DNA of 13,542 nucleotides from a virus. Below are positions 1 to 13,542 of the stretch, piece after piece. The DNA is taken from the IMG/VR virus record IMGVR_UViG_3300038465_000133. One strand, written 5' to 3'. Within the stretch, counting starts at the first letter, position 1; each line of letters starts with the position of its first letter. Made by a program: the position numbers and the translations under genes. Under the pieces are notes generated by a model. That model was not told the origin of the DNA, made no database searches, and saw only the letters and a program-made list of their open reading frames with translations.

Positions 1-522
1 ACTCACCAGTTCAGCTATTTCCTTTGTTGCCTGTCGGCGGCAGACCGAGCCAAGTCCTACAAGAGGTTCAGTCGTAAGGTCAACTCCGCGCTTTCGGTAC
101 ATCTCCAAATGCGCATGATAATCAGCAATGTTCCAGCCTTGCAATACCGGAATGAATGGCAGATCAGGAGCCAGAATAGTCAAAGCAATGTAGTTACTGA
201 TCGTGTGCTGCTGATGCTTTTTCACCGTGAGCCCGGTCTGTTTCAAGATCTGAGGCTCACACATCCAATCCTGCGGAGAAGCGAAGTCCAACTGCCCAAG
301 TTCAAACTGGTAACGATAAACGCTGTCAATATACTCAACCTCGCCAGTCTTCCAACCGCCGTACATAGAAAGTTCAGTGAAACCTCCCGAATCGAGAGCC
401 CATGAGCATTTTGCTGGAGTAAATGGCTTCACTTTGGTGCGCAGTGTCCGGTGACTTACGAACAGAGGAAATCTTGCCTGCTGCAGCCATGACCCATGGT
501 GAGCCCCTAGGTAAAACTTCAC
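1..522 (-). CDS. TGT-superfamily (DpdA-like) guanine transglycosylase; partial, C-terminus outside the window
   Basis: A minus-strand frame stays open from the in-frame stop at 532-534 down to position 1. Candidate starts are GTG at 520-522 and ATG at 364-366, the latter preceded by GGAGG. The translation ...KCSWALDSGGFTELSMYGGW...ASPQDWMCEPQIL...LPFIPVLQGWNIADYH...EPLVGLGSVCRRQATKEIAELVS... parallels the TDSGGFQ / FDEC(T)P / (I)QGG / GGLSVGE blocks of tRNA-guanine transglycosylases. Phage and bacterial DNA-acting members of this superfamily are called DpdA. G+C is lower than in the rest of the window. Confidence 0.55.
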   Translation of the reverse strand, partial: MKFYLGAHHGSWLQQARFPLFVSHRTLRTKVKPFTPAKCSWALDSGGFTELSMYGGWKTGEVEYIDSVYRYQFELGQLDFASPQDWMCEPQILKQTGLTVKKHQQHTISNYIALTILAPDLPFIPVLQGWNIADYHAHLEMYRKRGVDLTTEPLVGLGSVCRRQATKEIAELVS

Positions 523-549
523 CCTGGCATCTTAGCGAGGTTTCAACCC

Positions 550-663
550 TTAGGCAGAACGATCCCGCTCATCTAGTTCCATGTTCACTTCGGCGATCTC
601 TGGGGCAGTGTGGTGATAGAGGTCGACAAACTGATCACCACTGAGGTGCTCTTCAGCCGCCAT
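550..663 (-). CDS. hypothetical small acidic protein (37 aa)
   Basis: ATG at 661-663 and TAA at 550-552. It fills the gap between the 675..920 gene and the DpdA-like gene. No clear RBS, and it is very short. Confidence 0.25.
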   Translation of the reverse strand: MAAEEHLSGDQFVDLYHHTAPEIAEVNMELDERDRSA

Positions 664-674
664 TAGATCGCCGA

Positions 675-920
675 TTACCCGTGACGCTCGGTCTTCGAGC
701 GATTGTTCACGACGCTGCGGATCCGCAGGGCCACGTGCGCCATGGCCTGGCGCTGGGTTTGCGGCATCGACCCGCCGTAAGGCACAGCGCCCATGGCGCC
801 GTTGGAGGTCTCCCAGGAGTACTCGCCGCCGTTTTGGCTGGCGGAATGCTTGACCTTGTAATCGTCGGCCAACACCGCTCCGTTCGGATGGAGGGTCCTG
901 AGGTTCTTGGCGATTCCCAT
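675..920 (-). CDS. hypothetical protein (81 aa)
   Basis: ATG at 918-920 sits directly after the TAA of the upstream mini-gene (…AGGAGAGAAGTAAATG). Residue composition is diverse. The overlapping R/P-rich ORFs 550..978 and 707..988 look like off-frame artefacts. Confidence 0.5.
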   Translation of the reverse strand: MGIAKNLRTLHPNGAVLADDYKVKHSASQNGGEYSWETSNGAMGAVPYGGSMPQTQRQAMAHVALRIRSVVNNRSKTERHG

Positions 921-1061
921 TTACTTCTCTCCTCTGCGGTCGCGAAATACTGACGTCGGGCAGTCGGGGTTTGGACACTGGCCCTCATCCCCTACAGTCA
1001 GTTTGGCATTACAAGCCTTACAGTGTCCTGCAGGAGCGAAGTCTCCGTCTTTCCTCGCCAT
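921..1061 (-). CDS. zinc-ribbon mini-protein (46 aa) with C-terminal F-R-D-R-R-G-E-K tail
   Basis: Not in the ORF track because it is under 60 aa. ATG at 1059-1061 overlaps the TAA of the 1061..1300 gene (TAATG), and TAA lies at 921-923. Translation: MARKDGDFAPAGHCKACNAKLTVGDEGQCPNPDCPTSVFRDRRGEK. It has a CxxC…CxxxxC zinc ribbon and is paralogous to the 1592..1774 product. Confidence 0.5.
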   Translation of the reverse strand: MARKDGDFAPAGHCKACNAKLTVGDEGQCPNPDCPTSVFRDRRGEK

Positions 1062-1300
1062 TACTTCTCTCCTTTGGCAGCGCATCCAGGGCAGGATTTG
1101 GCGAACACCTCATTGTGGCCGACGTAATAGCCGTGCTCGCAGAAATAGCGTTGGTGGGCGGCGGGCTGCTTGGCGGCCCACTTGTTGTGGCGGTTTACGA
1201 AGGCGGGTTCAGCGGCGTCGCCCTTAATGTCGTGATAGATGGGATCACTTGGATCTCTGCTGCGCATGTCGGTGCCCTTGAACTGTCGGCTGAACTGCAT
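1061..1300 (-). CDS. hypothetical protein (79 aa) ending in CPGCAAKGEK
   Basis: ATG at 1298-1300 overlaps the TAA of the upstream gene by 1 nt (TAATG). The 3' end, …AAAGGAGAGAAGTAA, is identical to the 3' end of the 921..1061 gene. Confidence 0.5.
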   Translation of the reverse strand: MQFSRQFKGTDMRSRDPSDPIYHDIKGDAAEPAFVNRHNKWAAKQPAAHQRYFCEHGYYVGHNEVFAKSCPGCAAKGEK

Positions 1301-1500
1301 TACTCACCCCGCCGATCATGGAAGATCATCTGCCCGTGTTGATCGTGGGTATGCGTAATCATGGTGGGGTTGTTCTCGTACTCATCGTGCGCCCACTCAT
1401 GGAAGGTGCGCAGGGAGTGGCCCTCGCGCTCGGCGAAGTTGCCCTCGTAGAGGGTGCCGGGCGGGTGCTCCTTCTCTAGGTGCTTGGTAATGGAGCCCAC
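1300..1500 (-). CDS. hypothetical His-rich mini-protein (66 aa) ending in …MIFHDRRGE
   Basis: GTG at 1498-1500 is the first start after an in-frame stop. A weak RBS is present. The C-terminal FHDRRGE motif is shared with three other small genes. Confidence 0.4.
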   Translation of the reverse strand: MGSITKHLEKEHPPGTLYEGNFAEREGHSLRTFHEWAHDEYENNPTMITHTHDQHGQMIFHDRRGE

Positions 1501-1591
1501 GATGGCCGAGGGATTACCCGGCTCTGCGGGTTATAAACGACTGGGTGAACTGCTTGGCGTTCCCCAGGTTCGAGTCGGACATGCCTAGAGG

Positions 1592-1774
1592 CTAGCTGCG
1601 CCGGTCATGAAAGAGAATGTCATAGACATTATGCTCATTCTCAGGGCAAGTGGGATTTGTACACTCCCCGTCCCTGAGAGTTTGCTCACACGCTCCACAC
1701 TTGTTCATTCCAGGATGTTCGCTCAGCGGCTTCATGTAGCCACTACTAGCGTCGTAGTAATGGTCTTTAGCCAT
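1592..1774 (-). CDS. zinc-ribbon mini-protein (60 aa) ending in …LFHDRRS
   Basis: ATG at 1772-1774 is preceded by GAGGAGA at a 7-nt spacing. The track's GTG at 1810 is less likely. The gene overlaps the 3' end of the 1767..2687 gene by 8 nt (ATGGCTAA). Translation: MAKDHYYDASSGYMKPLSEHPGMNKCGACEQTLRDGECTNPTCPENEHNVYDILFHDRRS. It is paralogous to 921..1061. Confidence 0.5.
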   Translation of the reverse strand: MAKDHYYDASSGYMKPLSEHPGMNKCGACEQTLRDGECTNPTCPENEHNVYDILFHDRRS

Positions 1775-2687
1775 TGATAGTCTCCTCGGCGATCTCGCAC
1801 ATTGGTCCACATTGTATGACAGGCTCGGTCTTGAAGTTGCCGCGCTTGGGATCCAGTTCGTCGAGGAAAACTGGACTCTTCACCCGGGATCCCTCAGTGA
1901 TCTCCTCGGAGTTGATGGCATGGCCGATGGTACGCTCAAGCCGGGCCATGCGATCGAACGTCTCGGGGAAATCGACCCGGATCTTGTTCCAGTAGCCCAT
2001 CTTGCCCTTGACGCAGCCGATGCAGTTGTTATGGTCGTAACCGAGGTCATACATGATCGGTAACTTGATCCCGGCCCGATCGATCATGGCAAGACAGTCT
2101 GATTTGGTCAGTCCCATTTCAATGAGGTTCCACCAAAAAACCTCACCCGGATTACGCTCGACAAAGTCGGCGGCTCGCTTCTTCTCCTCGAAGGTGTAAC
2201 CAAAGATCTGACGGTCTGTCGGGCGCATGAACTCATAACGAAGTCGACGCTTTAGCTCTGCCGTACAACGAGCCCCGTCTGGACCGGCCAAGAATCTGGT
2301 CTGCTCAAAGACGTCCCAAGTGTCCTTATAGCGATCGCTCTTCAAAACGGTGACCTCTTGACCGAACCACTCTTCACAGTCATGGAGGAACCGAAAGTTG
2401 TCCTCATGTTCGGACCCAGGGTCGGTGTAAACGATTTCACACGGTCCTTTGGCGATCGCCAACTTTGCCGCAACTGCTGAGGACGCTCCGCACGAGAACC
2501 ACACCACAGTTCTAGGTCTATTAATCTTCCGTCGCGGGGACGGCGATCCGAATCCGATTGCCGCCGGTGCTTCCATCGAGCCCATCCTTCTTTGGGCGGC
2601 CCGCCACTGATCGTTATCAGTGGTGTTCTTTTCGCGAAAAGATCGAAGCACGCTCTTTTTATGGTCGGGAACTTCTTCCTCTGCCAT
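1767..2687 (-). CDS. PAPS-reductase-family PP-loop protein (DndC/CysH-like fold)
   Basis: …RTVVWFSCGASSAVAAKL… is a variant of the SGGKDS PP-loop of the PAPS reductase family. A downstream …ARCTAELKRRL… block resembles the CCxxRK motif, and there is a C-terminal CIGC pair. The start is uncertain: ATG at 2687 (TAATG-coupled to the upstream gene), or ATG at 2576 preceded by GAAGG at a 9-nt spacing. The second option would leave 2577-2686 intergenic. G+C is moderately lower than in the flanking genes. Confidence 0.6.
   Translation of the reverse strand: MAEEEVPDHKKSVLRSFREKNTTDNDQWRAAQRRMGSMEAPAAIGFGSPSPRRKINRPRTVVWFSCGASSAVAAKLAIAKGPCEIVYTDPGSEHEDNFRFLHDCEEWFGQEVTVLKSDRYKDTWDVFEQTRFLAGPDGARCTAELKRRLRYEFMRPTDRQIFGYTFEEKKRAADFVERNPGEVFWWNLIEMGLTKSDCLAMIDRAGIKLPIMYDLGYDHNNCIGCVKGKMGYWNKIRVDFPETFDRMARLERTIGHAINSEEITEGSRVKSPVFLDELDPKRGNFKTEPVIQCGPMCEIAEETING
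2604..2641. promoter_or_regulatory. two adjacent perfect inverted repeats: CCACTGAT-cgtt-ATCAGTGG (2604-2623) and CTTTTCG|CGAAAAG (2628-2641)
   Basis: Read directly from the sequence. On the plus strand the first hairpin is followed by TGTTCTTTTCG, giving an intrinsic-terminator-like shape. The pair lies just upstream of the PAPS-reductase-like PP-loop region, and is intergenic if that gene starts at 2576. Confidence 0.3.
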
Positions 2688-3073
2688 TATCGTCTCTTTC
2701 CACTCGCTTTGCGGGCTAATGATGCAAATGACTTGGCCCGCTGCTGTGATGCTCTGATCTCTGCGCCGGGCCGTGGTGCTCTTGATTGGCGGGGCTGGCG
2801 GGGCATGTCCTTGCGCAGCGGATTATCGAGGTCGCCCCGCTTTGGGCGGTCATCTTGCTTGAGGCCCTCGCGGATCCCTCGCATGTACTCGTTCTTGGCC
2901 GCCTGGCCCTTGAGGCTCTTGAGCTTCTCACGATGCTCGGCGCCCTCACGAGAGCCCTTGTAGTAGGCCTCTTGCTCAGGGGGGAGGCCGAAGTCGTCGG
3001 GCGGCTCTTCAGGGGCCTTGGCCGGGCCGAGGTAGTTGCTAATCGATTCTCTGAAGCTTTGGCCCCTACCCAT
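2687..3073 (-). CDS. hypothetical highly charged, low-complexity protein (128 aa)
   Basis: ATG at 3071-3073 is preceded by GAGGTGAGG at an 8-nt spacing. The track's GTG at 3085 has no spacer. TAA at 2687-2689 overlaps the next ATG. The product is K/R/E/P-rich and looks disordered. The antisense ORF 2786..3115(+) is L/A-rich and is rejected. Confidence 0.45.
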   Translation of the reverse strand: MGRGQSFRESISNYLGPAKAPEEPPDDFGLPPEQEAYYKGSREGAEHREKLKSLKGQAAKNEYMRGIREGLKQDDRPKRGDLDNPLRKDMPRQPRQSRAPRPGAEIRASQQRAKSFASLARKASGKRR

Positions 3074-3314
3074 CAGAATCCTCACCTCTACGGTCGTGAA
3101 ACACGTCGAGCATGAAGGCGGGGTGACGCCCAGTGGAAGGACCTATTGGACCGTCGTGCCAATCAACCGTGGCCTGAAAATGCGGACCCTTGCCCTTATT
3201 CACCTTGCGAACGGTGCCAATAGGTGAACCTTCTTTGGCAGGAAGACCTGAACCAGGGCGGCGGCGAACTTGATCACCAACCTTGACCTTAGGAGTAACC
3301 ACCTTCCTCGCCAT
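3066..3314 (-). CDS. hypothetical basic protein (82 aa) ending in …LDVFHDRRGEDSDG
   Basis: ATG at 3312-3314 and TAG at 3066-3068. Fourth member of the C-terminal FHDRRGE set. The N-terminus MARK… matches that of 921..1061. Confidence 0.5.
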   Translation of the reverse strand: MARKVVTPKVKVGDQVRRRPGSGLPAKEGSPIGTVRKVNKGKGPHFQATVDWHDGPIGPSTGRHPAFMLDVFHDRRGEDSDG

Positions 3315-3336
3315 GTAATCAGTGTACCGTGATTAC

Positions 3337-3642
3337 TCAGCCAAAGCCAAAGTCTTTGGTGCTCCGATTTAGCTTCTCGGCCACGCCTGAAGGCTTCCAG
3401 GTGGCCAGATAGCTCACGGCGGCGGAGAGATAGGTCATCAGGATCTGCAGGGCGATGTGGGCCCAGCCCGAGAGGGAGGGCGGAGATGCGCCCACCTGGC
3501 TGGCCACGACGCCCGAGGCGGTCGTCAGCAAGAGGGAGATCAGGACCTTCCAGGGGGCACTGAGGCGGGCCTTGGTCACCAGCGCCACCAAGAGCGGGAT
3601 CCCGAGCCCGATCAGCATGGTGACGATCGTCGAGGTGGTCAC
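3337..3642 (-). CDS. small membrane protein, 2-3 predicted TM helices (101 aa)
   Basis: GTG at 3640-3642 is preceded by AGGAG at a 6-nt spacing. Hydrophobic stretches: LIGLGIPLLVALV, LISLLLTTASGVVA, ALQILMTYLSAAVSYLA. The overlapping R-rich ORF 3200..3769 is rejected. Confidence 0.55.
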   Translation of the reverse strand: MTTSTIVTMLIGLGIPLLVALVTKARLSAPWKVLISLLLTTASGVVASQVGASPPSLSGWAHIALQILMTYLSAAVSYLATWKPSGVAEKLNRSTKDFGFG

Positions 3643-3650
3643 GATTACTC

Positions 3651-3971
3651 CTATCGCAAAGGTACGGGGCAGCCCTCGGGGTAAGAGTCGGCCACCCCGG
3701 CGCCGAAGTTGCCCTCAGAGACCGGGAAAGCGCCCACGTGGCCCGCCATGACGGCCGGAGCGATGGCATCGGGGCCCGGCACCATGCCCCCGAGGGGCGT
3801 CAGGGTGATGGCGGGGTCGACCTTCTCCATGGACCCGTGACGCCCGGCCACAGACGGCATGAGGTAGGGCTGCAGGGGCACAGCTGGCTCTCCCCGACCG
3901 CTGTGGGCCATGGTCACCGAGATCCCGCAGCGCGGGCCCATGCACTCCCTCGTGATGTTCGGGCCGCCCAT
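3651..3971 (-). CDS. hypothetical protein (106 aa)
   Basis: ATG at 3969-3971 follows a weak GAGG. This is the C-terminal part of the track ORF 3651..4157. The 5' portion of that ORF is R/S/P-rich low complexity and overlaps the better-supported 4003..4269 gene, so the later start is preferred. Confidence 0.35.
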   Translation of the reverse strand: MGGPNITRECMGPRCGISVTMAHSGRGEPAVPLQPYLMPSVAGRHGSMEKVDPAITLTPLGGMVPGPDAIAPAVMAGHVGAFPVSEGNFGAGVADSYPEGCPVPLR

Positions 3972-4002
3972 ATCGGCCTCAGACTCGCCGACGGCGAAGT
4001 TG

Positions 4003-4269
4003 TCAGACACTGGTGCCGTCCAGATAGGTCGGGCCCTTGGGCTGGAAGGCGTACGCTCGATTCCAACAGATCCGGCCGCGGGCCTGGACCGGCTGGGCGT
4101 CGTGCTCATAGGCCGGGTACGAGGCCACGATCTTGTGCTTGGCCCCGAGGGTCTCATTGATCCGGGTGTGGGGCTGTAAGAGGGTGTCGAGGATGTCGCT
4201 CTGGTTCTTGTCGAGCTTGGCGTCCAGCTCGGGCATGTACTTGGTCCCTACGCGCTGAGACTTGCGCAT
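4003..4269 (-). CDS. hypothetical protein (88 aa)
   Basis: ATG at 4267-4269 is preceded by GAGGAGG at a 9-nt spacing and lies 1 nt after the TAG of the upstream gene. Composition is diverse. Confidence 0.5.
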   Translation of the reverse strand: MRKSQRVGTKYMPELDAKLDKNQSDILDTLLQPHTRINETLGAKHKIVASYPAYEHDAQPVQARGRICWNRAYAFQPKGPTYLDGTSV

Positions 4270-4270
4270 C

Positions 4271-4567
4271 CTAAATCGCCTCCTCTTGGCCCATCTCAAA
4301 GGGCCGCAGCTCGCCAGAGAGGTGGACGGTGACCCGCCCGCCCTTGCCACCCGAGACCTCGTAGGAATGGCCGTCGCTCTCTCGGCCGGGCCGGGTGGTG
4401 TTGGGCATGACGGCGGTCACCGTCTGCACCCCGTATCTCCCTGGAGCCTTGACTGTGTCGCCGGGCGCATAGGAGGGCGGCTTCATGGTGTCAGCGTAAA
4501 CATTGCTCGGAGCGCCCATCCGGCGGCGCTGTGCGTGCCCTACTCTGCGTGGGTCGGTCATGGCCAC
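4271..4567 (-). CDS. hypothetical protein (98 aa)
   Basis: GTG at 4567 or ATG at 4561 lies immediately downstream of the SpoVS-like stop at 4574-4576. Translation ends …SYEVSGGKGGRVTVHLSGELRPFEMGQEEAI. Confidence 0.45.
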   Translation of the reverse strand: MAMTDPRRVGHAQRRRMGAPSNVYADTMKPPSYAPGDTVKAPGRYGVQTVTAVMPNTTRPGRESDGHSYEVSGGKGGRVTVHLSGELRPFEMGQEEAI

Positions 4568-4573
4568 AGGGTA

Positions 4574-4891
4574 CTAGCGGCCCCAATCCTTCAGTAGGCA
4601 TCTCAGGACAATGGCCGTGATCTCCTCACCGTTGCCGCCGGTGACGGTCTGGCAGCCCGGGATCAGGTACATATCCTCTCCCTGACCGGCCAAGAGCTGG
4701 CGGGCCCGAACGGTACCTTTGACAGCCTGATTTACCGCTCCGGCACCGATGGCCCGCAGAGTAATGCACTTCTCTTCGGCGATCGATGAGACCAGTAATG
4801 CAGCAATCCCGCCGACATCAGACCCGGGGCGGATCTTAATGGGCTCTAGGGGCTTTCTTGGTTCGTCGGACGGCAGCGGCAGCAGTGTCAC
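4574..4891 (-). CDS. SpoVS-like (stage V sporulation protein S family, Alba-like fold) protein
   Basis: …ITLRAIGAGAVNQAVKGTVRARQLLAGQGEDMYLIPGCQTVTGGNGEEITAIVLRCL… aligns by eye with SpoVS …IQAIGAGALNQAVKAVAIARGFVAPSGVDLICIPAFTDIQIDGEERTAIKLIV…. The start is uncertain. GTG at 4891 gives about 20 extra N-terminal residues and a 56-nt overlap with the upstream gene. No ATG lies near the expected N-terminus. Confidence 0.6.
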   Translation of the reverse strand: MTLLPLPSDEPRKPLEPIKIRPGSDVGGIAALLVSSIAEEKCITLRAIGAGAVNQAVKGTVRARQLLAGQGEDMYLIPGCQTVTGGNGEEITAIVLRCLLKDWGR

Positions 4892-5414
4892 GGGAGTGCA
4901 TCATGGCCGATTTTTCCTCCCGCTCTAAGTCAACCCCTTTCATGGCGTATTTGTACATGCGGGCCCACTGCTCTGGAGTTTGCACAACGATCCACTTGGG
5001 GCCCTTCCTCACACGTGGCCGTTTTACAAAGAGAGCGCCGAACCTCACCCGCTTGTTTTTACGCTGACGCTCGACGTCTTCGATCTTGGCGTTGATGGCA
5101 ACCATTGGATTTGCCCACCAGGCCACTTGAAGTGCAGTCTGGGGAACGCCATCGATATCGCCGACGTCATCTTTACGGCCCGCTCCGAGTGCTCTGCGTA
5201 TATGCGGGAGATCGAGCAGTCGTCGGAGGAGGGCTTGGACCTCTCGCTCACCTTCATCACCTTTATTCTTTTGCGGATTACTCACTGGTGTTCCGTCCAT
5301 AGCCAAGAGCATCCGACAACGGTAAAGACCGCACAGGCAGTGGTTCGCCTCGGCCCAGTCCTTGCTCTTGACGTGGCCATGGATTACCTCTGGCGGCGGT
5401 TGATTGCGACCCAT
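4836..5414 (-). CDS. hypothetical protein (192 aa); weak resemblance to YraN/Hjc-type PD-(D/E)xK nucleases
   Basis: ATG at 5412-5414 follows AAGG at a 6-nt spacing. …GDEGEREVQALLRRL…GAGRKDDVGDIDGV…VAINAK… loosely follows the GxxGE…GEID…EVK pattern. The assignment is tentative. The antisense ORF 4980..5693(+) is rejected. Confidence 0.4.
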   Translation of the reverse strand: MGRNQPPPEVIHGHVKSKDWAEANHCLCGLYRCRMLLAMDGTPVSNPQKNKGDEGEREVQALLRRLLDLPHIRRALGAGRKDDVGDIDGVPQTALQVAWWANPMVAINAKIEDVERQRKNKRVRFGALFVKRPRVRKGPKWIVVQTPEQWARMYKYAMKGVDLEREEKSAMMHSRDTAAAAVRRTKKAPRAH

Positions 5415-5566
5415 GCACGCCTTGCTGCCACTACGACAAAAAGTTCAGTGAGCACGATAAGCCAGATCGGATACCCAAACACCCCGATCAAAATACAGAG
5501 CAAACAGACAACAACCACTTCTGGCAAGAGGCTGTTTTGTGAGTACCACTTTATTGAGTGTCGCAT
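5384..5566 (-). CDS. hypothetical single-pass membrane mini-protein (60 aa)
   Basis: ATG at 5564-5566 and TAA at 5384-5386. Hydrophobic core VVVVCLLCILIGVFGYPIWLIVLTELFVVVAA. Lies in the lower-G+C stretch and has a weak RBS. Confidence 0.3.
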   Translation of the reverse strand: MRHSIKWYSQNSLLPEVVVVCLLCILIGVFGYPIWLIVLTELFVVVAARRAWVAINRRQR

Positions 5567-5576
5567 GATTACTACT

Positions 5577-5771
5577 TTACTCGCTCTGACTCCAGAAACC
5601 GCGGTTATTCCTCGCCTCCTCGGCATACCCCTCGCACTCGTCAATCGCCTGGAGGGCGGCGAACTTGATGAAGTCCTTATGGCTGGTGCGTAGGGCCCGG
5701 CAGACCAGGCGCAAGCGCTCTCGCTCCTCGTCGTCAAATGCGTCACTGAGGTCAAGATCCGCTCTGGCCAT
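5577..5771 (-). CDS. hypothetical acidic protein (64 aa)
   Basis: ATG at 5769-5771 overlaps the HNH gene's 3' end by 20 nt. The track's GTG at 5873 would place 100 nt inside the HNH gene. No clear RBS. Confidence 0.3.
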   Translation of the reverse strand: MARADLDLSDAFDDEERERLRLVCRALRTSHKDFIKFAALQAIDECEGYAEEARNNRGFWSQSE

Positions 5772-6240
5772 AACAGTTCGGTTTGTTAGTGACCGAGACC
5801 AACGAGCGCTTCCGTTCAGTCGGAATAACCCGAGAAAGTCCTTTCGGTCCTGACGATTCTTCCTCTCGCTCACATTTCTTTATCCAGTTACAGTTCGCAC
5901 ACAGTACTTGATAGTGCTGCTTGTTCGCCAAAACATGGGCTCGATACTTAGCAGTAGAACTGCCCATTATTTTGCTTTCTGCGCGACCTCCTCCATTTAC
6001 GTGATCGACTTGAAGGGCACGCCAATCTGCAAATCCACATCGTGCACACTTACATCCACCGAGTGCTGTTAAGAAAGCGATGCGCGTCTTCTCATGAGTC
6101 TGCTTCTGATACAACTTTCGATGATAGACGCAGACATTGCGCAAACCATCCGGGTTTACTCTTGATATGTAGAACTCTTCTACGGGCCTGAACTCGCCAC
6201 AGTTTGGGCACCATTTCTTGGTGGAGTCAAACTCGTACAT
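5752..6240 (-). CDS. HNH endonuclease with N-terminal zinc ribbon
   Basis: …GGCKCARCGFADWRALQVDHVNGGG…HYQVLCANCNWIKK… gives the HNH signature (C-x2-C…DH…N…C-x2-C). An N-terminal CPNCGEF ribbon is present. ATG at 6238-6240 overlaps the upstream gene by 14 nt. G+C is clearly lower than the window average (about 45-47% by hand count of 120 nt). Confidence 0.75.
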   Translation of the reverse strand: MYEFDSTKKWCPNCGEFRPVEEFYISRVNPDGLRNVCVYHRKLYQKQTHEKTRIAFLTALGGCKCARCGFADWRALQVDHVNGGGRAESKIMGSSTAKYRAHVLANKQHYQVLCANCNWIKKCEREEESSGPKGLSRVIPTERKRSLVSVTNKPNCYGQSGS

Positions 6241-11765: not shown

Positions 11766-13542
11766 CTAAGCGTTTACAGCTGTGTGGGACGTGCCATTCA
11801 ACGGGCGACCCGCCAGGGTCTTGGCTGCGCTCTCTAAGGGCGTGCCCTCGAACACCCGGCTCAAAAGGTCTGCCGTCGTGACCCCGGCAGCCATAGCAGC
11901 GGGACCCATGGCCGTAATGATCGTAGCGGTCAGTGTCTGATCACCGAAGACCTCGATGGCCTTGATCATGTCGGGCGAAACAGCTTCGAGACGCCGAATG
12001 AACTCAGAGGTCTCAGCGACAAGGCGCTCCATCTCCATAGCGTCGGTCGCCGCCGTCTGATTAAGAACGCCAGCAAAGCGTTCCCACTCAAGCTCGATTT
12101 CCCGAGTAATGATCTTGGCCCGTTCTTCGAGCGTGAGCAGCCGGAGTTCTTCGTTGCGCTTATCCGCATTATGCTTTGCAGCGCCACGCTCCCACTCAAG
12201 CTCCGTCGCCTGTCGCCACGTGGACTGCCGCTCCAGCGAAGACTCGCGCTCTAACTCTTGGAGGCGGGCATCGCGCACCGTAGCGTCCTCAGCAATGGAG
12301 AGTTGAATAGCGCCAGCGAGCGCCTTGCCCTGTGCATCATTGAGGAGGGCGGCCACGTTCTGGTCCTGAATGTCGACGCTTAGGACTTCGACGTCGTAAA
12401 CGTGCATGCCGTTCTCTTCAAAGGTCAACCCGAGGCGGCCGTCTGCGCCGGGCGTACCAAGAAGTTCGTCGCGCACGATGTTAATCGTGTCGAGGTAAAA
12501 CGACCGAATGTCGTACTGCTTGGCCGCATTACGCAGCCGGGACCGGGCATGGTCAGTGAGGGCCTGGACATAGTTCTCCAGAGAGAACCACTGCAGCTCG
12601 TCGCCGATGAAGTTGACCCGGTAAGAGACGCCGATGGCCACACGCACGAGGTCACGAGTCTCGACCAGGATGCGATCGCTGACCACATTATTGAGCGTCC
12701 GCAGATAACCGGTGCGCAGGAGCTTCTCGTCGTTCTTCGGGCGGCCGGTCGACAGTGCCAAGGCCATAATCGTCTCGTCATATTCGAGCAAGACGGTGCG
12801 AGGGCCCATCTCCACTCGCCGGTCGCCGGTCTTGTTGGTCACCAGTACGGCATAGCCGGGCCAGATATTCAGCGAAACGGCTCCCTCGTACTTGGTGTCG
12901 AGGGTAATCGTGCGGGCCCCTCGATACGTGGTGCTGCGGCTCATGGCATCACCACCAAAGTTCTGGATGTCAGGGAGGGCTGAAGCACTAGCAAGACTTG
13001 CGCTGGCATAGTTCGTCGAAGTCAACCCTCTAATACTTCGCATCGTTCCGGCATCAAGAGCATCCATTGTGGCCGCCGCTGCCTCCTGTGCAGCACTCTC
13101 TTGCTGATAGCGCTGATTTACCTGCAGCGCCTCACTGTTGCCCGGATACATGAGAGTGACGTCGTGCGGATCAAGGATCCGGCGCACCACCACTTCAAAG
13201 CGCGGGTCGGGCAGGAACATGGCAGGACCACGCTCCAGATTGACCTGGCCGGTGCGGCGGTCGAGAACGTAGCGGCCCTCCCCAGCGGGAATGGCGATGG
13301 CGTGATGCTTGCGCTGATCGCCGTAGGTAATAATGCTGTGCTCGGGCCGGGGGAAGTAGATGGCCTGCTCTTTCCCGGTAATGAACAACTCTTCACCGAC
13401 CAGATGGGTCCCGTTACTGTCGGTGTATTCCTCGATTACTTTGACATAAAGCCCACTGCGCTCGTCAAGCTCGATGGCCTGGAAGTTACGACCACCTTGC
13501 TTGTTACGACGGAACGACTCGGTTGGCCGAGGGAACACGACG
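11766..13542 (-). CDS. major vault protein (MVP) homologue; 5'-partial, roughly 300 N-terminal residues expected outside the window
   Basis: The frame is open to the right edge and TAG lies at 11766-11768. The alignment with human MVP is by eye but collinear. Repeat hallmark …NGTHLVGEELFITGKEQAIYFP… matches GEEWLVxGPxxYxP. …GRYVLDRRTGQVNLERGPAMFLPDPRFEVV… matches [34 protein letters not shown]. …RRVEMGPRTVLLEYDETIMALALSTGRPKNDEKL… matches …[34 protein letters not shown]…. …ILVETRDLVRVAIGVSYRVNF… matches …[21 protein letters not shown]…. The shoulder WFSLENYVQALTDHARSRLRNAAKQYDIRSF matches [31 protein letters not shown]. The cap-helix coiled coil (…AIQLSIAEDATVRDARLQELERESSLERQ…) and the cap-ring region (…MIKAIEVFGDQTLTATIITAMGPAAMAAG…) follow in order. 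Confidence 0.8.
   Translation of the reverse strand, partial: VVFPRPTESFRRNKQGGRNFQAIELDERSGLYVKVIEEYTDSNGTHLVGEELFITGKEQAIYFPRPEHSIITYGDQRKHHAIAIPAGEGRYVLDRRTGQVNLERGPAMFLPDPRFEVVVRRILDPHDVTLMYPGNSEALQVNQRYQQESAAQEAAAATMDALDAGTMRSIRGLTSTNYASASLASASALPDIQNFGGDAMSRSTTYRGARTITLDTKYEGAVSLNIWPGYAVLVTNKTGDRRVEMGPRTVLLEYDETIMALALSTGRPKNDEKLLRTGYLRTLNNVVSDRILVETRDLVRVAIGVSYRVNFIGDELQWFSLENYVQALTDHARSRLRNAAKQYDIRSFYLDTINIVRDELLGTPGADGRLGLTFEENGMHVYDVEVLSVDIQDQNVAALLNDAQGKALAGAIQLSIAEDATVRDARLQELERESSLERQSTWRQATELEWERGAAKHNADKRNEELRLLTLEERAKIITREIELEWERFAGVLNQTAATDAMEMERLVAETSEFIRRLEAVSPDMIKAIEVFGDQTLTATIITAMGPAAMAAGVTTADLLSRVFEGTPLESAAKTLAGRPLNGTSHTAVNA

Follow-up and report, generated by a model that had tools for sequence, protein, structure and literature searches.

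A predicted dPreQ0 cassette and a PptA-family PP-loop gene lie side by side in the replication region of an uncultivated phage

Gene content of the locus

We analyzed a stretch of 13,542 nucleotides (nt) from an uncultivated phage (IMG/VR record IMGVR_UViG_3300038465_000133; the whole stretch is referred to as the window, and its source as the window phage), with emphasis on two genes near its left end, dpdA and a gene encoding a PP-loop protein. Nearly all coding capacity of the window lies on the minus strand. Read from right to left, the recognizable genes encode a protein with major-vault shoulder and repeat domains, a family A DNA polymerase, a RecA/UvsX-like recombinase and a WhiB protein; further leftwards lie genes for a Cas4-like exonuclease, an HNH/EndoVII-like nuclease, a RusA-like resolvase and SpoVS, then several small open reading frames (ORFs), the PP-loop gene and dpdA. 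The latter two genes sit in the early/replication region of the phage. The presence of an encoded WhiB-family protein suggests an actinobacterial host. A megablast search of window positions 1-3400 against 50,697 phage records returned no match; at the DNA level, the window phage has no similar isolate. A promoter and terminator scan of the same interval stayed at shuffle level and is uninformative on operon structure.

The left-edge gene belongs to the DpdA family

The dpdA gene starts with GTG, reads from position 522 to position 1 and is truncated by the window edge (Table 1); its full-length ORF of 244 amino acids is present at positions 256-990 of a metagenome contig, L006. An earlier note on this DNA had called the left-edge gene DpdA-like from four motif blocks, and all four were found within residues 44-163: DSGGF (residues 44-48), DWMCEP (85-90, the DxxCxP block), QG (128-129) and GLGSVCRR (156-163). 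The family assignment holds as well, with matches to PF23859 (206.1 bits against a cut-off of 27; E = 7.5e-61) and to PHROG 1279 (E = 2e-65). PF23859 was the sole Pfam family at E < 0.01, and the families of tRNA-guanine transglycosylase (tRNA TGT), the alternative grouping considered in the earlier note, gave no match at that threshold. Judged by these matches, the left-edge gene is a DpdA DNA-guanine transglycosylase and not a tRNA TGT, with an activity that is predicted because Que genes are encoded in cis (see below).

Three aspartates form part of the active site of DpdA, acting as general acid/base, in base recognition and as nucleophile (PMC10164549). Our alignment of 10 clade members showed that D44 (in DSGGF), D85 (in QDWMCE) and D204 (in DSMAW) are invariant. 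A compact Cys/His cluster, C221-x2-H224-x2-C227-x2-C230, is kept in the 10 members; it lies in L006, beyond the window, and its spacing differs from the CXCX2CX22H zinc site of bacterial DpdA. The earlier note had treated retention of the zinc site as a mark of a tRNA enzyme; this feature does not discriminate, as the TGT zinc site and the catalytic aspartates are both retained in genuine DpdA enzymes as well (PMC10164549).

Full-length identity of the window-phage DpdA to its counterparts in mycobacteriophage clusters K and B1 is 49-53%, and a scan of viral contigs with DpdA retrieved mycobacteriophage-like loci only. The singleton DpdAs of these clusters (ZoeJ gp42, Thyatira gp86 and the PG1/Orion type) have the same active-site residues. 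The singleton group was described from phages and hosts that lack preQ0 synthesis (Hutinet et al., 2019; PMC6884629). Cluster K phages have no Que genes near dpdA, whereas queC, queD and queE are adjacent to it in the window phage. QueC also adjoins dpdA in two of 80 IMG/VR loci of this DpdA clade (L120 and L151), accompanied by QueE in L120. The window phage is an uncommon, although not unique, example of a singleton-clade dpdA joined to its pathway, and such a phage or cassette could be used to test preQ0 insertion by this clade.

Some metagenomic DpdA homologues are interrupted or incomplete. In L011 the gene is split into a part encoding the N-terminal ~90 residues (1243-1495) and the remainder (3596-4103), with ~2.1 kb between them, which suggests an inserted mobile element. 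L012-L017 contain N-terminal fragments of DpdA only.

preQ0 genes lie just beyond the window edge

Contig L006 is identical to window positions 1-777 (777/777) and reaches 2.2 kb further left; the window and this extension were combined into a 15.8-kb composite. In L006 the gene order is dpdA-queC-queD-queE, all co-oriented. QueC (L006 917-1642) scores 166.9 bits against TIGR00364, above the equivalog cut-off of 150.3, and the top matches of the next two proteins are TIGR03367 for QueD (E = 2e-22) and TIGR04508, the Cx14CxxC type, for QueE (E = 1.5e-43). Canonical preQ0 genes are thus present in cis with dpdA, starting ~70 codons past the window edge. Because L006 continues as dpdA-queC-queD-queE, the apparent lack of these genes is an artefact of the window edge, and the idea put forward earlier that DpdA is paired here with the PP-loop enzyme rather than with QueC, QueD and QueE has to be abandoned. 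The advice of the earlier note to look left of the window for partner genes bore fruit for queC, queD and queE but not for folE. A false lead is thereby removed, as canonical preQ0 genes directly past the window edge make it unnecessary to invoke a new chemistry.

A tblastn search of the window with Rosebush FolE found nothing significant, window ORFs had no FolE Pfam match, and the gene after queE in L006 is unrelated to FolE. Neither an amidotransferase nor QueF is visible in the available sequence, and preQ0 is therefore the predicted base.

The cassette resembles that of characterized phages, whose dPreQ0 systems combine DpdA with FolE, QueD, QueE and QueC (Hutinet et al., 2019). In Rosebush and CAjan, DpdA and preQ0 genes lead to ~28-32% dPreQ0 (as a share of guanines) and to restriction resistance (PMC6884629). 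Rosebush gp2-gp5 have the same order, dpdA-queC-queD-queE, as the window phage and L006, and Rosebush QueC is 47% identical to that of the window phage. Three differences were found: Rosebush has folE (gp6) after queE, which the window phage lacks at that place; the Rosebush DpdA (gp2) belongs to another clade and gave no BLAST match with the window-phage DpdA; and the Rosebush-type cassette lies at the genome end, whereas that of the window phage is a low-G+C indel in the replication region.

Limits and base composition of the cassette

The part of dpdA in the window has a G+C content of 49.8% (51.7% at third codon positions, GC3), compared with a window mean of 57.8%. The whole dpdA-queC-queD-queE block has 48.9% G+C against 58.1% for the rest of the composite; each of the four genes falls between 47 and 50%, and the value returns to 60% directly past queE. 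For the PP-loop gene, G+C is 54.3% (GC3 64.5%), which places it at the 29th percentile of same-length windows (z = -0.53). Of the two gene sets, only dpdA-queC-queD-queE forms a low-G+C island, and the G+C content of the PP-loop gene is ordinary. The earlier claim of low G+C for both genes therefore holds for dpdA alone.

A close relative on a 5.2-kb contig, L025, made it possible to place the limits of the block. L025 is 88% identical to the window phage at the nucleotide level across the PP-loop gene, and the encoded proteins are 96% identical. Its gene order is a C5 DNA methylase gene, the PptA-like gene (see below), a 60-amino-acid zinc-ribbon ORF and an intact 177-amino-acid gene starting MSDSNLGNAKQF (the MSDSN gene); no dpdA/que block is present at this site in the contig. 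In the window phage, what follows the 60-amino-acid ORF is a frameshifted remnant of the MSDSN gene, limited to its first ~95 nt. Past this fragment lie five small ORFs, dpdA-queC-queD-queE and a second, intact MSDSN gene (L006 2627 onward), and 40 nt of the duplicate are 95% identical to L006 2627-2666. A three-way alignment with L025 shows that homology ends near window position 1495. The stretch of five small ORFs (550-1500) has 59% G+C, and window positions 1047-685 and 664-590 have counterparts at another position in L025.

Accordingly, dpdA-queCDE lies within a ~3.4-kb block that is flanked by a direct duplication and missing at this site in L025, while the PP-loop gene is external to the block and shared by both phages. 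The low G+C content and the indel relative to L025 fit horizontal acquisition of the dpdA region as a cassette. The acquired modification cassette proposed earlier is upheld in this restricted form, that is, for the dpdA region but not for the PP-loop gene. From its gene content, dpdA-queCDE appears to be an ordinary, horizontally mobile dPreQ0 cassette that was cut by the window edge. In this pair of close genomes, one with and one without the 3.4-kb block, the transfer of a deazaguanine cassette as a whole can be seen, and its junction is recognizable.

In L025, the C5 DNA methylase gene (1859-2551) ends one base ahead of the start of the PptA-like gene.

Table 1. Features at the left end of the window, with positions in window coordinates
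Feature	Position	Strand	Remarks
dpdA	1..522	-	5' 174 codons of a 244-codon gene, with ~70 codons left of the window; PF23859, PHROG 1279
37-amino-acid ORF	663-550	-	Inside the indel block; gene calls on identical contigs L001-L003
81-amino-acid ORF	920-675	-	Inside the indel block; gene calls on L001-L003
46-amino-acid ORF	1061-921	-	Inside the indel block; gene calls on L001-L003
79-amino-acid ORF	1300-1061	-	Inside the indel block; gene calls on L001-L003
66-amino-acid ORF	1500-1300	-	Inside the indel block; gene calls on L001-L003
Truncated duplicate 5' end of the gene after queE (MSDSN gene)	1490..1584	-	Peptide MSDSNLGNAKQFTQ...; upstream junction of the ~3.4-kb dpdA-queCDE block
60-amino-acid zinc-ribbon-like ORF	1592..1774	-	Directly downstream of the PP-loop gene; same protein at L025 3330-3512
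PptA-family PP-loop protein, 306 amino acids	1767..2687	-	PAPS-reductase-like fold; conserved core at residues ~53-305

The PP-loop protein is a member of the PptA family

The PP-loop ORF (2687 to 1767) is co-oriented with dpdA and lies 1,245 nt upstream of the start of that gene, in agreement with the earlier description of a PAPS-reductase-fold gene about 1.2 kb away. Its 306-amino-acid product matches PHROG 424, "PAPS reductase" (E = 6e-55). The Pfam family PF01507 (PAPS_reduct) gave 19.8 bits, under the cut-off of 22.5 and confined to residues 60-120, and none of the NCBIfam CysH models matched. The strongest relationship was to chain C of PDB entry 21fy, named PptA, which aligned with 47% identity (E = 7.5e-73; residues 53-305 to residues 21-269 of 270). 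A profile built from 37 homologues matched the same protein with E = 5e-94, and it is the sole PDB relative by sequence. The T7-like Vibrio phage vB_VhaP_VH-5 encodes, directly after its RNA polymerase, a hypothetical protein whose sequence is 100% identical to 21fy_C. A search of the PDB with E. coli IscS found that exact sequence in two entries only, 1p3w and 21fy; it follows that 21fy holds both PptA and IscS, and it is presumably, to judge from these sequences, an IscS-PptA complex.

More than 7,500 homologues of the PP-loop protein were found at E <= 1e-10. Most of these have 240-260 amino acids, and so conservation does not extend to the N-terminal ~50 residues of the window protein, which are likewise extra in relation to VH-5 PptA. 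Both proteins share a variant PP-loop (FSCGA.SAVA), an NNC.GC motif and a C-terminal Cys tail. The two phages have different hosts: the window phage encodes WhiB, and VH-5 is a T7-like vibriophage. The variant PP-loop is conserved in the family (consensus WFSAGAASAV); C141, C198, C222 and C225 are invariant in the family alignment, and C293 and C297, in a flexible C-terminal tail, are near-invariant. An AlphaFold model of the protein (predicted local distance difference test score, pLDDT, of 85.7) had the [4Fe-4S] enzyme LarE, CysH, TtuA and QueC as Foldseek neighbors, at 13-17% identity. These neighbors are sulfur transferases of the Fe-S or persulfide type. Look-up of the exact protein retrieved short contigs only.

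The PADLOC library of defense genes gave SspD as sole match (E = 1.5e-11, residues 61-254) and no match to DndC; the reading as an orthologue of DndC was rejected. SspD and DndC are PP-loop enzymes that receive sulfur from a cysteine desulfurase (reviewed in PMC12707154) and work with partner subunits; the window gene is similar to them but stands alone in the phage. None of the partners SspA, SspB, SspC, DndA, DndD and DndE (desulfurase, ATPase and DNA-binding or nicking subunit) was found among the window ORFs. The PP-loop protein is SspD-like without belonging to an Ssp or Dnd system. The link to DndC made in the earlier note is thus correct as regards a relationship to phosphorothioation-type sulfur transfer, with SspD rather than DndC as the closer match.

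Taken together, the PDB entry with PptA and IscS, the fold neighbors, the SspD match and the conserved cysteines indicate a catalytic sulfur transferase fed by IscS, and the PP-loop protein is probably such an enzyme. By analogy with SspD and DndC, DNA phosphorothioation would be its most likely reaction.

A phage PAPS-domain protein has been found to counter Dnd genetically (Piel et al., bioRxiv 10.1101/2021.05.05.442762). This protein, a fusion of a PAPS domain with Dam in Vibrio crassostreae podoviruses, links a phage PAPS-like domain to DNA methylation and anti-restriction, in keeping with the frequent location of PptA-family genes beside DNA methylase genes. In contrast to that fusion protein, the window gene is unfused and has no methylase neighbor, although its homologue in L025 abuts a C5 methylase gene.

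We surveyed 80 IMG/VR loci of the PptA family (982 kb) with profiles for two DpdA clades, QueC, QueD, QueE and FolE. None of the 80 loci contained any of these genes within 10 kb of the PptA-family gene (upper 95% bound, 3.7%). DpdA and Que genes were also absent around the PptA-family gene in five further metagenomic contexts, three of them on long contigs, and in phage VH-5. Among 141 large neighboring ORFs, the commonest Pfam family was C5 DNA methylase (9/141), followed by recombination and replication genes. At one locus, L021 (10771-11667), a PptA-like gene is directly followed by a second, different PAPS_reduct-like gene, with several DNA methylase genes close by.

Two candidate DNA-modification functions and the alternatives

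We consider it rather probable that the locus carries two independent DNA-modification or anti-restriction functions side by side, namely the dPreQ0 cassette and a PptA-family sulfur transferase. The identity of the modified bases and of the sulfur acceptor is inferred from the gene families and their context, as is a role against restriction; both gene sets probably protect phage DNA. In the first function, QueD, QueE and QueC would turn a GTP-derived pterin into preQ0, with the FolE step presumably supplied by the host or from elsewhere in the phage genome, and DpdA would then exchange guanine in DNA for preQ0, giving dPreQ0. In the second, the PptA-family enzyme would take persulfide sulfur from the host cysteine desulfurase IscS and pass it to nucleic acid; the likeliest product, by the SspD/DndC analogy, would be a DNA phosphorothioate, which may help the phage to evade phosphorothioate-sensing or nuclease-dependent defenses. 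The PptA family is very large in phages, and if it writes phosphorothioate, the window phage would have both a base and a backbone modification.

Several points weigh against this reading. L006 comes from another assembly, and its join to the window rests on the 777 identical bases. The scores of its QueD and QueE are under the strict NCBIfam equivalog cut-offs, and FolE was not found in the 15.8-kb composite. Orion, a member of the singleton DpdA clade, has unmodified DNA (PMC6884629). PAPS-superfamily genes of other subfamilies occur 0.06-3.6 kb from DpdA in six of 80 DpdA-clade loci. Finally, full-text literature searches found no paper describing PptA, and tRNA thiolation or sequestration of IscS would likewise fit an IscS complex.

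This last point leads to an alternative that we consider unlikely, although it carries some weight: a PptA-like enzyme that does not modify DNA and instead thiolates tRNA, in the manner of TtcA or TtuA, or binds and diverts IscS and so starves a host phosphorothioate defense of sulfur. TtuA and LarE are among the top fold matches, PptA shares its PDB entry with IscS, and no DNA-recognition partner (an equivalent of DndE, SspB or the ATPase) adjoins the gene; in addition, the genetic anti-Dnd role of the phage PAPS domain leaves the mechanism unrevealed. On the other hand, the strong conservation of the PP-loop and six cysteines over more than 7,500 homologues argues for catalysis over mere binding, the only enzyme matched in the defense library, SspD, acts on DNA, and frequent adjacency to DNA methylase genes suggests a DNA-marking context.

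It is also conceivable, with a low probability in our estimate, that DpdA is inactive here or has another substrate, in line with its singleton-clade relatives, and that the products of the Que genes feed a different process, for instance as a source of a nucleoside or tRNA precursor. The DpdA is indeed ~50% identical to those of clusters K and B1 and unmatched by BLAST to that of Rosebush, and Orion, with DpdA only and no preQ0 genes, has no 7-deazaguanine in its DNA (PMC6884629). However, the absence of a preQ0 source explains the unmodified DNA of Orion, and in the window phage queC-queD-queE directly follow dpdA in one co-oriented, low-G+C block. Little or no variation is seen in the three catalytic aspartates and the Cys/His cluster, and two loci of the same clade, L120 and L151, also have an adjacent QueC, with QueE in addition in L120.

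We judge it very unlikely that dpdA and the PP-loop gene were acquired as a single module, with the PAPS-reductase-like enzyme taking over or extending the chemistry of QueC so that a variant, possibly sulfur-containing, 7-deazaguanine results. In favor of such a module, 1.25 kb separates the two co-oriented genes, the intervening DNA shows no terminator-like site on their strand, and Streptomyces phage Gilgamesh has a PAPS_reduct-domain gene two genes away from DpdA. The six DpdA-clade loci noted above compare with one of 80 loci anchored on WhiB, whose alignment served as the control anchor (RecA as anchor gave a single locus); the enrichment had a one-sided Fisher p of 0.058, and it was not significant (p = 0.18) once near-identical loci were merged. 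Apart from Gilgamesh, the loci are L124, L159, L186/L187 and L112/L116; all have an orphan-clade DpdA and no Que genes nearby, and their PAPS-like genes come from at least four different subfamilies, none of them that of the window gene. No close PptA-family gene was found in the 80 DpdA-clade loci, where the best of four weak hidden Markov model matches had E = 4.6e-8 compared with E < 1e-96 in six positive controls. Between the PAPS-like gene and DpdA, no conserved third gene was detected in L124, L159, L186, L112 or Gilgamesh, with the limit that greedy ORF picking is unreliable in high-G+C DNA. We read the weak signal as two kinds of anti-restriction gene that tend to share one variable region, with a looser functional tie across the superfamily as a lesser possibility. 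At the locus itself, QueC, QueD and QueE are in cis, only FolE being missing for preQ0, and a role of the PP-loop gene as a QueC substitute was rejected, as QueC itself is present. The PP-loop gene also lies outside both the indel block and the G+C island, L025 has it on a contig that lacks the dpdA/que block, and none of the 80 PptA-family loci has DpdA or Que genes. The variant chemistry that the earlier note drew from the pairing thus finds no support.

The DpdA-PAPS intervals in question are 3002-5774 in Gilgamesh (L029), 2120-3753 in L186, 446-3255 in L124, 429-3314 in L159 and 6310-10723 in L112.

A related and highly improbable proposal is that PAPS-superfamily PP-loop enzymes are recurrent functional partners of the orphan DpdA clade, with the PptA-like enzyme here sulfurating preQ0 or dPreQ0-DNA (turning the nitrile into a thioamide, for instance) or supplying an alternative substrate. 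If true, it would imply a sulfur-containing 7-deazaguanine that has not yet been described, and it would explain why many mycobacteriophages retain DpdA without a preQ0 pathway.

We give next to no credence to the view that the PP-loop gene is an auxiliary metabolic gene for a CysH-type assimilatory PAPS reductase, through which the phage would increase sulfur assimilation by its host. The protein is labeled a PAPS reductase in source annotations and in PHROG 424, CysH structures are among the fold neighbors and the tail consensus IECSLLC loosely resembles the ECGLH tail of CysH, but the grouping with CysH considered in the earlier note was rejected, given a PAPS_reduct score under the gathering score, no NCBIfam CysH match, an identity to CysH structures of just 13-16%, a closest characterized relative in the same PDB entry as IscS, SspD as best defense-library match, and neighbors that are DNA methylase and recombination genes rather than sulfur-assimilation genes.

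Other features of the region

Elsewhere in the window, a 590-amino-acid ORF (11766-13538, minus strand), whose start lies at the window edge and which is possibly longer, matches the shoulder domain of the eukaryotic major vault protein (PF11978, E = 3e-22) and the vault repeat PF17795 (E = 1.5e-8); it had no PHROG or PADLOC match. A SpoVS-family protein (PF04232, E = 2.4e-15) is encoded at 4574-4891 on the minus strand, inside the phage replication region. The HNH/endonuclease VII-like gene (5752-6240, minus strand) forms a second low-G+C islet within the recombination module (48.3%; GC3 49%) and is probably a mobile nuclease gene.

Two of the small ORFs in Table 1, of 46 and 60 amino acids, resemble paralogous zinc ribbons when compared by eye (C-x-A-C...L..G.C.NP.CP); the former lies inside the dpdA block and the latter outside it, beside the PptA-like gene. 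Four otherwise unrelated small ORFs share a C-terminal peptide, [VIL]F[HR]DRR followed by G/S-E, 1-7 residues before the stop codon. The sites are at window positions 947-927, 1323-1303, 1612-1592 and 3101-3081 (minus strand), and also around 1257, 1421 and 3492 in L025. The underlying DNA pattern, TTYCRYGAYCG, was found at four places, each time on the coding strand and in one and the same reading frame, whereas shuffled sequences led to an expectation of 0.12. The purine-rich 3' part of the element is also the ribosome-binding site of the next gene, and the element may serve as a C-terminal peptide motif common to these ORFs or in translational coupling.

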